Positions 25,311-52,560 of a DNA stretch of 64,000 bases are shown one piece after another (position 1 is the stretch's first letter; each line of letters opens with the position of its first letter). Made by a program: the position numbers and the translations under genes. The stretch is from positions 32,001 to 96,000 of the forward strand of contig CAXXWS020000002.1 in assembly GCA_963665325.3 (NCBI GenBank). Direction: 5' to 3'. Under the pieces are notes generated by a model. That model had not been told where the DNA came from. It did not search any database and was given only the letters and a program-made list of their open reading frames with translations. Source of the stretch: Alphaproteobacteria bacterium (GTDB taxonomy: Bacteria > Pseudomonadota > Alphaproteobacteria > Bin95).

Positions 25311-25800
25311 GACCAAGAAAAATTCCTAAAAATTCCTATTTTGTTTCAAAATGGGCTTGACCCTGGAAAAAGTGTGCTACACTGTCACCGAGGGAAGTGG
25401 CGTCCGGGGCCGTTTCCCTCGGATCCGAAAAAGACACCCGCAAAACCGACGGGAGACGTGCGCCCTGCGCCAGCCTCGCGCGCGGGCGCAATCAGGCGCG
25501 CGAAACGCGCCGGCGCTAGCGGGCGCGCCCGCCCGCGCGCGAAACGCGCGAAAAGGGGCGCTGGCCGCCGCCTCGATTCCGCTCGAAAGGAGACCCGATG
25601 ACTGCAACCGACCCCCGCCCCGAACCGCGATCCGGGGTTGCTCCGAGAACCGAGGCTGGGCCCCGGCTCGGAGGCCGGGGCGACGGTTGGGGGACATGCC
25701 CCGTCCGCATGCGGAACATGACATCTCGTGACACATGGCAGGGTGGACCCCTGACGCCGCATGACGAAACATGACACTTCATGACACTTGCGGGGATATC
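25311..25800 (+). repeat. Dispersed element copy A (promoter-hairpin-core-short ORF-CATGACA array)
   Basis: Shares AAACCGACGGGAGACGTGCGCCC (25443-25465) with 33346-33368 and GCGCAATCAGGCGCGCGAAnCGCGCCGGCGC (25486-25516) with 33402-33432 and revcomp 52075-52105; heptamers at 25750/25760/25770/25780; boundaries approximate. Confidence 0.85.
25598..25774 (+). CDS. Putative 58-aa ORF inside element copy A (may be a relic)
   Basis: GAAAGGAG RBS then ATG; ends ...HDET* in the CATGACA array, like the TerS-like ORF of copy C (...HDRT*). Confidence 0.3.
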   Translation: MTATDPRPEPRSGVAPRTEAGPRLGGRGDGWGTCPVRMRNMTSRDTWQGGPLTPHDET

Positions 25801-33000: not shown

Positions 33001-33212
33001 GTCACGGGGTCGGCGCGAGGCTGTTCCAGTTGAAATCCTTGAACAGCGGCAGGGCTTCCGGATCGATATGGAAGCTCCGGTATTTGGGGCCCATGGTGCC
33101 GATGCTGGGTTCGATTGCCCCCGTCCTCCCGGAAGGCGTCGCCCGCGCCAGTATGGCCGAAACCGGTTGCTGTGGCGAACGGGGACATCCGACCTGCGCC
33201 CCAGGATTGCGA

Positions 33213-33660
33213 TTTGTTCATAAAATAAGAAAATTTACAGAAACAACTTGACTCCCGGAAGGTTCGGCCCTAGATGGGGCGGGAGGAAGGAAGCGGCATC
33301 CGGAGGCCGTTTCGTTTGGCGCCGGCGCGAAGAAAGACCCCCGAGAAACCGACGGGAGACGTGCGCCCCGCGTTTGTCTTGCCTTGCGCGCGGGGGCACA
33401 GGCGCAATCAGGCGCGCGAACCGCGCCGGCGCCAACGCGCCGGCCCGCGCGCACGCGATACGCGCGAAACAGGGTCCCGCCGCAAGGGGAGACGGGCGGC
33501 GGGGAAATAGAACAAAACAGGATTTTCAGGAGGGGCCAATGCCGAAGACAGGGACGAGAACGAACCGGACGGAATACCCCGAGCCCCTGCCCGAAAGGAC
33601 TGGACGACATGCGCCCTGCGTATGCGGATCATGACAAAACATGACACTCCCGGGGTGTTC
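33213..33660 (+). repeat. Dispersed element copy B
   Basis: TTGACT at 33248, hairpin GAAGCGGC/GCCGTTTC, both core blocks, CGCGATACGCGCGAAACAGGGTC shared with copy C, AGGAGG-ATG at 33539, CATGACA at 33630 and 33640. Confidence 0.85.
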
Positions 33661-34251: not shown

Positions 34252-34321
34252 GACCCGGCCCGCTTAGCATGTTTACGGCATGCGGGCATCCGCTCCGCCG
34301 GTGCGTTCGTCTCGCCCCGAG

Positions 34322-34508
34322 AAGCTTGGCGGGGGAGAATGCTTGGTAAGATGGGAATGGAGGAAAGGCGGCTTCCCGGAGCCGCCTTTTCGAATTCGGA
34401 AGGCGGGGGCGAGAGGGATATTCCCGAAAGGAACAGGAAACATGCGCCCGGCGCAGGGAGCCTCATGACATCGCATGACATTTCATGACACATCGCTGGA
34501 GTGGGCCC
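34322..34508 (+). repeat. Dispersed element copy D (minimal: promoter, hairpin, RBS, CATGACA x3)
   Basis: TTGGCG-N15-TAAGAT, hairpin GAAAGGCGGC/GCCGCCTTTTC, CATGACA at 34464/34474/34484; 34484-34508 matches revcomp 50926-50950 at 24/25. Confidence 0.75.
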
Positions 34509-34608
34509 TTTGGGACCGTCAGGCGGCGGCCCGGTTTGCGTGTCCGGAGGAAGCGGCTATACCTCTGGGCGGCCCGGAACGGGCGGCCGAGAGGCGGTAT
34601 CGAAAGCG

Positions 34609-50884: not shown

Positions 50885-50955
50885 CGGCGCCGGGTTCCGA
50901 GAGACGCGATGCAGCGCGTCCGCCGGGGCCCACTCCAGCGAAGTGTCATGAGTTG

Positions 50956-51936
50956 TCATGTTCTGTCATGGTCCGGCGCGGAACCGGCGCCCTCGAGCCC
51001 GGTCTTCCTTCCCCTCTTCTTCTTTTTCTTTTTCGTCGCCGGTCCACTCCAGTCACCGTCTTCGCCGCCGCCCCGTTCTTCCCGTTCGAGGCGGTTCCGC
51101 GTTCGCTGCCCGACCTCCTCCGGGGCCCAGGGGGCGTAGATTTCGTCGTAGCCGTTGCGGCGCTGGTAGAGCCAGTCATGTTCGGCGCCGTCGGCCCTGT
51201 CACCGTCGACCCTGTCCTCGTCGCCGGACCCTTCGCCACCTGCCCACGGGCAATCCTCGTAGGTCTCCTCGGGCGGGTCGTCGGCGGGGGGCCGGTCTTC
51301 GGGCGAAGCCGGTTCGGGGGCCTCGAAGCAGACGGGCAGTCGCGTCCGCTCCTCGACGGCCCCGGCGAGCCTGCGGGCAACCTCCTCATGCGCGGCCCCG
51401 TCGAAGCCCTCCTGCGCCTCAAGCTCCTCCCGGCTGGCATGGTGCCGCGCGAGCGCGCATCGGGCGCGGTCGAGGCCGCTGCGCACGGCCTCGACGAGCG
51501 GCCCGGGTTCGGCTCCGGCCTCCTCAGCCTCGCCCGCTTCGATCTCGCCGAACTCGTCCTCGTGCGGCAGCGGCCAGAGCCCCGCACGGCGCGCGGTCGT
51601 CGGCCCCGTAAGCCCCGCGATCTCGGCCTGGAAGCGCAGCACCCGGAGCATCGTGTAGGCCGAGCCGCTGGCGACGGCCGCGTCCCACGCCTGCTCCAGC
51701 CGGGCAAGCAGGATGCGGGCCTCGTCCCGCTCGGTGCGCTTCCATGACAGGCGGATGCGCCGCAGCCGTTCGACAATGTAGGGTCGTTCCAATAAGGCGC
51801 AGCCGGTCTGGCGGGCGGAGCGCCCGGAGTAGCCGGCCTGCCTTGCAGCGTCTGCGGCATTGCCGGAGACGGCATAGTGGCGGCAGAAGGCTTCCTGGCG
51901 TGTGGACAGCGCGACGGCGGGTTGGATGATGGGCAT
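50956..51936 (-). CDS. Terminase small subunit-like HTH protein with long low-complexity tail
   Basis: N-terminus LSTRQEAFCRHYAVSGNAADAARQAGYS..SARQTGCALLERPYI fits Terminase_2 (PF03592) pattern; AAGGAG RBS. Confidence 0.75.
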   Translation of the reverse strand: MPIIQPAVALSTRQEAFCRHYAVSGNAADAARQAGYSGRSARQTGCALLERPYIVERLRRIRLSWKRTERDEARILLARLEQAWDAAVASGSAYTMLRVLRFQAEIAGLTGPTTARRAGLWPLPHEDEFGEIEAGEAEEAGAEPGPLVEAVRSGLDRARCALARHHASREELEAQEGFDGAAHEEVARRLAGAVEERTRLPVCFEAPEPASPEDRPPADDPPEETYEDCPWAGGEGSGDEDRVDGDRADGAEHDWLYQRRNGYDEIYAPWAPEEVGQRTRNRLEREERGGGEDGDWSGPATKKKKKKRGRKTGLEGAGSAPDHDRT

Positions 51937-51953
51937 GGGGCGGAGCTCCTTTC

Positions 51954-51968
51954 GTTCCGCTAACGTTC
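51954..51968. promoter_or_regulatory. Alphaproteobacterial LexA (SOS) box
   Basis: GTTC-CGCTAAC-GTTC, exact GTTC-N7-GTTC, immediately upstream of the RBS of the TerS-like gene. Confidence 0.7.
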
Positions 51969-52282
51969 TTTCGAGTCGAACCTGATTTCAGGGCCGACAC
52001 ACAGCCATCACCCCGACCCGTCTCCGGAGCGACCCTGTTTCGCGCGTATCGCGGGCGGGCGCGGGCGCGTGTTGGCGCCGGCGCGGTTCGCGCGCCTGAT
52101 TGCGCGCGCGAGCCGGAGGACGCACTTCGCCTGTTTGTTGAATCGGGGTTGTTCTGCGCCGGGCCGGCGCGAAGGGAAGCGGACCATGGATACCGCTTCC
52201 CTCGGAGCCATTGTAGCATAATTTCCTGAGGGTCAAGCCTGTTTCGGAATTAATTCAAAACAAGAGAACAAGAAGTCATGCC

Positions 52283-52560
52283 GGCGGCTTCACCGCCGGG
52301 CGCGTCATCGGCAAGTGGATCGGCTTCTACAACACCATCAGGCCGCACTCGGCGCTGGGCGGACGGACGCCGGCCGAGGCCTACTGGGACGGCCCGCCTG
52401 TGGATATGATGGACGAGCCGCTTCGCGCCTTGACCACATCCCCACAGGCGCAGCAGCAGCAACAGGAAGATCGACTCAAGGGGATTCTGGCGGCCTGAAC
52501 TTCAACCGGGATACATCTTAACTCAGCCGTCAGGCTGTCCGACGAACCGAGGCCACCTCA
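52283..52560 (+). mobile_element. IS3-family remnant (3' end of OrfB and right end)
   Basis: Frame encodes GFTAGRVIGKWIGFYNTIRPHSALGGRTPAEAY (stop 52496-52498); terminus CTGTCCGACGAACCGAGGCCACCTCA ends in CA. Confidence 0.85.

Follow-up and report, generated by a model that had tools for sequence, protein, structure and literature searches.

SPP1-type packaging (pac) sites have been described as sets of direct repeats situated in or beside terS, the gene of the phage small terminase (TerS) (PMC4737164). TerS homologs also occur outside phages, as in the Staphylococcus aureus pathogenicity islands (SaPIs), where terS sits in a LexA-regulated operon (operon I of SaPIbov1; PMC3152322), and the small terminase of the Rhodobacter capsulatus gene transfer agent (RcGTA) is of the TerS type and acts on chromosomal DNA of the host (PMC6854486). 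Here we have analysed an orphan gene for a TerS-like protein in a stretch of 64,000 nucleotides from an Alphaproteobacteria bacterium (assembly GCA_963665325.3, contig CAXXWS020000002.1, positions 32,001 to 96,000 of the forward strand), hereafter the window. The gene, which lies on the minus strand at window positions 50956..51936 and encodes 326 amino acids (aa), is carried as cargo by the full-length copies of a lineage-specific modular repeat made up of a putative promoter, a leader, the cargo and an array of CATGACA heptamers. A first-pass annotation of the window had proposed an SOS-induced, TerS-like gene with a role in packaging, in phage defence or as a domesticated DNA-binding protein; this interpretation is partly supported, and the nature of the gene as multicopy cargo of a modular repeat had been missed. 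What would be new is the appearance of a TerS-family DNA binder in an element-borne, multicopy and, as its upstream box suggests, SOS-gated setting; a limited search of the open-access literature returned no account of a gene of this kind, which is weak evidence of its absence from print.

The locus shares features with each of the closest described systems. As at the SPP1 pac site, the gene has direct repeats within or beside it, but here they are exact heptamers with a 10-bp period that overlap the stop codon, and, in contrast to the situation in SF6 and SPP1, the gene is multicopy and no large terminase (TerL) or head genes adjoin it. As in the SaPIs and other phage-inducible chromosomal islands (PICIs), a TerS homolog is found outside a phage under LexA control, which is here predicted from a box, and the logic that we propose below is likewise that the packaging of a helper phage is redirected to the element's own pac site. 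However, whereas SaPIs measure roughly 15 kb, the present unit measures 1.35 kb, comes without integrase, replication module, capsid-remodelling genes or att sites, and exists in many copies accompanied by hundreds of gene-less sites per genome, with no helper known. The likeness to GTAs is that of a TerS-type protein working on host DNA. GTA packaging is not known to be site-specific, in contrast to a gene that has a defined array, and the GTA TerS lies in, or serves, a resident head-tail cluster, whereas no HK97-type capsid (PF05065) was matched in this genome and 14 of the 17 genomes of the genus showed no TerL of the three Pfam families searched. Finally, insertion sequences (IS) and their miniature inverted-repeat transposable element (MITE)-like derivatives also combine few coding copies with many short ones that share both ends, occupy sites that are polymorphic between related genomes and cluster by genome; unlike them, the present repeat shows no transposase fold, inverted repeats or target duplications, and its modular cargo includes a second, unrelated family. 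By their defining features, the element is neither a PICI, a GTA nor an IS.

The genome of the window (G000; 5 contigs, 5.58 Mb, 67% GC) carries five full-length copies of the gene, 92-93% identical at the protein level, and one internally deleted remnant; G001 to G016 designate its relatives in the genus. The sequence that the loci of the gene have in common amounts to only ~1.35 kb and contains one open reading frame (ORF). Read 5' to 3', this unit consists of an AT-rich block, a promoter-like motif, a GC-rich leader of ~230 nt, a short variable stretch, a LexA-type box, a ribosome-binding site (RBS), the ORF and the array, with a tail of ~45 nt in some copies, and each of the five paralogs has its own leader and array. 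In the window all these parts are on the minus strand. The AT-rich block (GTTC ... GAATTAATTC; 52237..52283) represents the approximate left end of the unit as judged from copy alignments, in which this end is fuzzy, and the conserved leader (core GCGCAATCAGGCGCGCGAACCGCGCCGGCGC ... GATACGCGCGAAACAGGG) spans 51969..52203, with 67 leader-core matches in the genome. The unit tail (50885..50943) ends at the hslO stop codon and contains a 13-mer, TGGAGTGGGCCCC (50925-50937), with the sequence found at the outer end of an IS3-family inverted repeat, and a hairpin with a 6-bp stem (GACGCG..CGCGTC; 50903-50920); a homologous tail, with the hairpin altered, is found in relatives. The orphan status of the gene had been correctly recognised: a scan of 48 other window ORFs found no domain typical of phages, integrases or transposases, the nearby exception being a truncated IS3-type fragment, and the same scan of ~8 kb around each of the five copies returned none, the neighbours being housekeeping genes. 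Homologs likewise lie outside prophages.

The gene ends, as the first-pass annotation had noticed, in an array of three CATGACA heptamers with a 10-bp period (50944..50970, minus strand), its TGA stop falling within the second repeat. Across seven genomes, the array lies at the stop codon or within ~50 nt 3' of it in 43 of 45 copies of the gene. The heptamer-pair pattern is far from chance, with 8 matches in the window against 0.01 expected, and when one mismatch is allowed there are 169 matches in the genome, which form 78 clusters. The leader precedes most of these arrays on the same strand, within 2.5 kb in 64 of the 78 and within 500 nt in 54; two further arrays belong to full-length copies, in which the leader is counted inside the long match. 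Related arrays (CATGACG, CCTGACA) are retained in homologs with 45-58% identity. We infer that the TerS-like protein binds the arrays and multimerises there, a proposal that rests on this association and on the precedent of TerS proteins and their pac sites. Co-variation between the recognition helix and the array was looked for and rejected, given that groups with differing helices mix CATGACA, CATGACG and CCTGACA with no clean switch between them. As a feature of the repeat itself, CATGA contains both ATG and TGA, so that with a 10-nt period three repeats provide a stop and a start in all three forward-strand frames, and every ORF entering an array ends within it. On the opposite strand (TGTCATG three times on the plus strand of the window), the core TGTCAT is identical to that of the Pho box, for which we assume a consensus of CTGTCAT at an 11-bp period; the period of the array is 10 bp and no -10 element follows. 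A distant homolog with 33% identity (L063, ~1504-1960, in a 'Candidatus Odyssella' record) is directly followed on its 3' side by three TGTTGAC/TGTTTAC repeats, again with a 10-bp period, and then by an endonuclease-like gene, in a context that is not clearly phage.

Gene and arrays travel together across the genus. The gene is present in 12 of the 16 genus relatives (E <=1e-10), G010 having fragments only and the others 5-17 matches each, and is missing from G001, G003, G009 and G014, whose genomes are smaller. Exact array-pair matches number 103-319 in each gene-positive genome and 0, 0, 1 and 23 in the four gene-negative ones; other genera have 0-1, and a reversed-pattern control gave 0 everywhere. 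More widely, the family comprises at least 333 members at E <=0.001, many of them 64-93% identical over their full length and located on megabase contigs. A scan of a genome collection located 58 loci, all in uncultured Alphaproteobacteria or Rhodospirillaceae. Three of the locus records are titled 'Spongia_Bin9', 'SB0661' and 'COS4'; only the first title names a sponge, and we take the other two to be sponge-derived as well. Of the sequencing runs listed as containing the stretch none is of RNA, and the DNA runs are mostly labelled as sponge metagenome. In two sister genera, a weak generic TerS match was obtained in one of 20 genomes.

The N-terminal domain of the protein is a member of the Terminase_2 family, with a helix-turn-helix (HTH) of the SF6 G1P type. 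Terminase_2 represents its sole Pfam match (E 4.7e-12; 47.2 bits against a cut-off of 26.1), aligning residues 11-80 with profile positions 2-71 of 141, and several 'terminase small subunit' families match in PHROGs, the best being phrog_51 (PHROG_51; E 8e-14). In Foldseek, the structural model is matched best within the PDB by the small terminase G1P of SF6 (3zqq) and by the DNA-binding domain of that protein (2cmp, 4zc3), the latter two with a template modelling (TM) score of 0.82 on the target, a root-mean-square deviation of 0.8-1.4 and 42% identity over 50 columns; the whole-model E-values of the SF6 matches are just 0.07-0.12, and none reaches 0.001. With all three approaches returning TerS and no other family matched, the Terminase_2-like HTH claimed from the first reading of the sequence holds. 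A search of NCBIfam gave 0 matches.

Like SF6 and SPP1 G1P, the protein would have a four-helix HTH DNA-binding domain at its N-terminus and a long helix after it, matching the start of the oligomerisation core. The AlphaFold2 model, built from 80 homologs (mean predicted local distance difference test score 71.6), contains a confident HTH at residues 12-50, helices at 52-120 and two more confident helices at 146-198, while the remainder is mostly disordered and acidic, with a Lys run in the tail. Distant phage-size TerS proteins align with residues ~5-120, conservation within the family is weak past residue 120, and a search of the ESM Atlas with residues 121-326 gave no usable match. Neither Pfam nor NCBIfam detected a catalytic or transposase domain, the C-terminal two thirds consisting of helices and disorder in the model. 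A complex prediction with four copies of residues 1-125 (alignment A2) scored 0.19 against a mark of 0.42, which allows no call either way. Together, these features suggest a derivative of a phage small terminase that kept the HTH head and the first oligomerisation helices, and in which, according to the model, the terminase beta-barrel has given way to additional helices and an acidic tail that evolves fast. As a whole, the protein fails the contextual definition of a small terminase, given that neither TerL nor a morphogenesis module accompanies it and that its ring-forming part is only putative.

Selection on the five paralogs is purifying, all of them being intact, with ratios of nonsynonymous to synonymous substitution rates (dN/dS) of 0.16-0.31 (~0.2 overall) that rise along the protein from 0.08 in codons 1-125 to 0.26 in codons 126-215 and 0.33 in the tail. 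The tail also differs between copies and between species in its runs of Lys or expansions of Asp/Glu, a fast-changing pattern that would fit a surface engaged in conflict with phage partners. The basic TKKKKKKRGRK tail described in the first-pass annotation is real, but it is retained in few close homologs only. In the copies of G012 (L125-L129), GAC/GAT/GAG (Asp/Glu) tracts vary in length between otherwise near-identical acidic tails, and the Lys run of G000 occupies the region of the tail that is an Asp/Glu tract in those copies.

Upstream of the ORF lies a perfect direct repeat of the alphaproteobacterial LexA type, GAAC-N7-GAAC (equivalent to GTTC-N7-GTTC; GTTCCGCTAACGTTC, 51954..51968, minus strand), which adjoins the RBS as had been claimed, with 4 nt between the box and the Shine-Dalgarno GGAG (51946..51949, within GAAAGGAG); the latter lies 9 nt 5' of the ATG and is kept in every aligned copy. 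GTTC-N7-GTTC is the SOS box listed for Caulobacter in Table 1 of PMC9578287, and the lexA gene of this organism has a perfect box (GAACTAATGTAGAAC) just 3' of CTTGAC in its own promoter region. One-mismatch boxes are found at most ~100 nt upstream of recA, ssb and uvrA. Among the 14 ORFs next to 10 selected perfect boxes, lexA was the sole classical SOS gene. Finding one perfect box does not exceed chance (the window has 2 where 1.55 are expected, with at least 2 in 47 of 100 shuffles; 119 in the whole genome), so that the weight of this one rests on its position and conservation. Within the seven genomes it is perfect in 30 of 45 copies, its half-sites fixed and its N7 variable (G000, 4 of 5; G011, 4 of 7; G005, 10 of 10; G013, 5 of 8; G012, 5 of 5; G016, 2 of 3; G008, 0 of 7). 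In a set of 31 loci from named records, which overlaps the former, 21 of 23 close homologs have the box and none of the eight distant ones (<=58% identity). The box is thus a conserved, gene-specific feature within the close clade, and LexA probably gates the TerS-like gene.

The putative promoter of the unit, TTGACC-15 nt-TACAAT, is of the extended -10 type, with a TG one base 5' of the -10 hexamer (52210..52236, minus strand). Across leaders the motif reads TTGAC-N16-TAnnAT, with the TG one base before the -10, and it is present in 54 of 67 leader copies. A standard sigma-70 scan with spacers of 16-18 nt did not flag it because its hexamers are 15 nt apart, and the same scan recognised no promoter adjoining the box. 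A hairpin at the putative transcript start shows compensatory changes (for one pair, GC in 24 copies, AU in 11 and GU in 6). The RNA fold of the leader is not distinctive (z = -1.75), and in Rfam the leader and array matched no family at gathering scores, a permissive scan having given one match at chance level.

The reading that we favour, to which we assign a probability of roughly one in three (0.35), is that a TerS derivative under SOS control binds the arrays and thereby marks dispersed pac-like sites for the terminase of an incoming or induced phage. LexA bound to the box beside the RBS would keep the protein off until DNA damage, phage induction or infection releases it. The protein would then multimerise on the 10-bp-phased heptamers of its own unit and of the ~70-300 gene-less arrays per genome, as gene-array co-occurrence and the TerS/pac precedent suggest. 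Such complexes might serve as pac-like sites at which the large terminase of the phage is captured, so that host DNA adjacent to arrays, units included, would be cut and packaged at the expense of the phage. Packaging of this kind would both spread units between cells and interfere with the phage, the fast-changing acidic tail being the presumed partner interface. The logic would be that of the SaPIs cut down to one gene.

Several observations weigh against this proposal. The protein, which is twice as long as SF6/SPP1 G1P, shows no beta-barrel in its model, and its Terminase_2 match is limited to the first half of the profile; moreover, the SF6 DNA-binding domains are described as binding DNA with little sequence specificity (PMC4737164). 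The position of the box, abutting the RBS ~240 nt downstream of the sole conserved promoter-like motif, is unusual for a LexA operator, and in G008 the box is lost in all seven copies with the genes still intact. None of the satellite hallmarks (integrase, replication module, att sites) was found within ~8 kb of any copy. The one TerL of the genome, of the Terminase_6N family, belongs to a Mu-like prophage (C1:~462-497 kb) far from every copy, TerL_ATPase not being found. In the genus, TerL_ATPase (PF03354) and Terminase_3 (PF04466) were matched in none of the 17 genomes and Terminase_6N (PF03237) in three, two of them over the cut-off, which leaves 14 genomes where no large terminase of these three families was detected, other TerL and capsid families lying outside the search. 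A resident phage or GTA as partner is therefore unlikely, the GTA-like or resident-prophage lateral-transduction role finds no support in the form suggested earlier, and the packaging model needs exogenous phages. Packaging also leaves unexplained the 5-17 copies per genome, the gene-less units and the existence of a second cargo.

This second cargo is an unrelated family of ~190 aa (range ~150-210 aa; N-terminus MTATDPRP) that occupies the same promoter-leader-array frame at no fewer than four sites in the genome (L140:223-786, minus strand, equal to G000:C4:289625-290185; L141:189-647, minus strand; L142; L143). Its members contain repeated TPEFRAW..ERR motifs and terminate in HD(K/E)T*, which ends inside the array. 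They have no Pfam match, and their 126 homologs at E <=0.001 come from the same set of genomes and the same lineage. A relationship with the TerS-like family was considered and rejected (hhalign probability 0.02). Units with this cargo have no box, so that the box is specific to the TerS-like gene. The second cargo is absent from G012, which has the TerS-like gene and 217 array matches, and present in G009, where the gene is missing and the matches number 23, a contrast that involves kin genomes and few independent events.

A multicopy cargo in a modular repeat that also carries an unrelated protein puts the view of a selfish element that works independently of phages, which we regard as possible if on balance doubtful, on a par with that of the packaging hijacker. 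Here the TerS-like protein, as the sequence-specific DNA-binding subunit, would mark the ends of the units, that is the arrays, for host or IS recombination or replication machinery, and would drive the copying, gene conversion or transposition of full and gene-less units, like an autonomous element with MITE-like derivatives. Several of the observations above would fit, namely the five intact copies and one remnant in this genome and the 5-17 matches per sister genome, loci that have just the 1.35-kb unit in common, the leader upstream of 64 of the 78 arrays on the same strand, and array abundance that tracks the TerS-like gene and not the second cargo. SOS gating is, in addition, common among mobile elements. 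Sites are also polymorphic between relatives. The site downstream of hslO holds a full unit in G000; among ten relatives it holds a short unit in three, an array with an IS in one, and nothing within 400 nt in six. Two short units of the window (33207-33646 and ~34290-34520) have no counterpart, or only a one-repeat relic, at the corresponding sites of G005. In a tree of 44 copies from seven genomes, the copies of each genome form one group with support of at least 95%, and those of G012, like those of G008, are near-identical with unrelated flanks.

The same data set limits to the selfish-element view. A copy adjacent to HupE lies at the same position in G000 and G002, yet the G002 copy groups with another G002 copy; given that position does not predict grouping, the clustering by genome must partly reflect gene conversion or repeated re-insertion instead of recent bursts alone, and gene conversion by itself could explain it. 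Terminal inverted repeats and target duplications were found neither in the five G000 copies, nor in the five near-identical G012 copies, nor in two comparisons of filled with empty sites, and the left end of the unit lacks a sharp border. Pieces of the TerS-like gene were detected by blastn in just three gene-less units, which argues that most short units are not simple deletion derivatives. The protein has no catalytic domain, Pfam recognising only the HTH and conservation being weak past residue 120. Finally, the second cargo shows that the frame carries other genes, so that neither cargo need be the mobilising factor.

If the arrays were instead coated at the 3' ends of units by an SOS-induced host protein, this domesticated regulator or roadblock might stop or modulate read-through transcription into neighbouring host genes or organise the nucleoid. 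The promoter-like motif in 54 of the 67 leaders, the position of the arrays at unit ends next to host genes, a 10-bp phasing that sets all sites on one helix face, purifying selection on all copies and the lack of an enzyme domain are all compatible with such a function. However, a host regulator is rarely kept as 5-17 diverging copies, each with its own array, four sister genomes manage without the gene, array positions are not conserved between species, and the family does not extend beyond a single lineage of Alphaproteobacteria associated with sponges, all of which makes this explanation distinctly unlikely.

More improbable still seems a pure anti-phage decoy, that is, an SOS-induced, dominant-negative TerS mimic that poisons the terminase of an infecting phage, with the arrays serving as storage or activation sites and no productive packaging of host DNA. 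A TerS head joined to a divergent, fast-changing C-terminal tail, the predicted SOS gating and the lack of a resident TerL to serve would be expected of such a protein, but defence genes are seldom multicopy within a dispersed repeat, a PADLOC search with the protein matched no family, and neither the conservation of the array at the stop codon nor the hundreds of gene-less arrays would be explained. That the gene is an old prophage gene in decay, which segmental duplication has spread and which has no present function, as its orphan context and the many truncated copies in sister genomes might suggest, is scarcely credible in view of five intact copies out of five, a dN/dS of ~0.2 overall and 0.08 in the HTH domain, full-length homologs with 64-93% identity across many genomes, and a conserved box and array.

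The consequences differ between the readings. Were the protein to bind arrays and capture phage terminases, the unit would constitute the smallest known packaging-hijack module, and it would give uncultured symbionts of sponges, in which horizontal transfer is hard to study, a route for exchanging genes and for interfering with phages. A further extension, which at present we hold to be unlikely, is a new chromosomal DNA-mobilisation system, a 'minimal satellite' with neither transposase nor integrase in which one protein makes hundreds of sites the starts of SOS-triggered packaging or processing; large stretches of the genome would then be transferable by any passing pac phage, the spread of the unit being a side effect. 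Should the repeat propagate without the help of phages, it would represent a class of mobile element without a recognisable recombinase. In either case, one HTH protein and one 27-bp site make a clean pair that can be tested at the bench, and a conserved gene with predicted LexA-type control is added outside the usual SOS set. The repeat family, with 100-300 arrays per genome and its conserved promoter-like motif and leader, also breaks short-read assemblies, contigs often ending inside the TerS-like gene, and deserves annotation.

The remaining features concern short units, IS elements and prophages. The window contains three gene-less units of the same repeat family on the plus strand (25478-25786 and the two compared with G005 above). 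A search for peptides in the 47 short units of the genome whose array has a leader no farther than 300 nt upstream gave no consistent ORF ending in the array, apart from a 7-codon frame made by the repeat itself. IS3-family elements of ~1.25 kb (G000:C1:1731658-1732908, C3:954359-955620 and C5:92629-93881) begin with TGGAGTGGGCCCC, the outer 13 nt of their inverted repeats, and this 13-mer follows 14 of the 78 arrays either as a complete IS or alone, as in the window. At the other end of the window unit, the truncated IS3-family fragment (~52283-52555, plus strand) comprises the 3' part of a transposase (rve C-terminus) and a right inverted repeat, and is cut off exactly at the left end of the unit. 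Arrays that contain a different IS occur in G011, on the downstream side of hslO, and at G000 C1:1284134. The divergent ssb-uvrA region (G000:C1:684340-686700) harbours a short repeat unit, with arrays at 684541-684598, and an inserted gene. A run labelled as viral metagenome contains part of the stretch; compared over 14 kb, it covers the whole host region much as three other runs do, in all cases as contigs, which is uninformative on packaging. The Mu-like transposable prophage (L082/L083, G000:C1:466000-500000) encodes transposases A and B, TerL, portal, protease, major head protein and two methyltransferases. The ssb family has 23 matches over the cut-off in the whole genome, which suggests the presence of many conjugative or other mobile elements.

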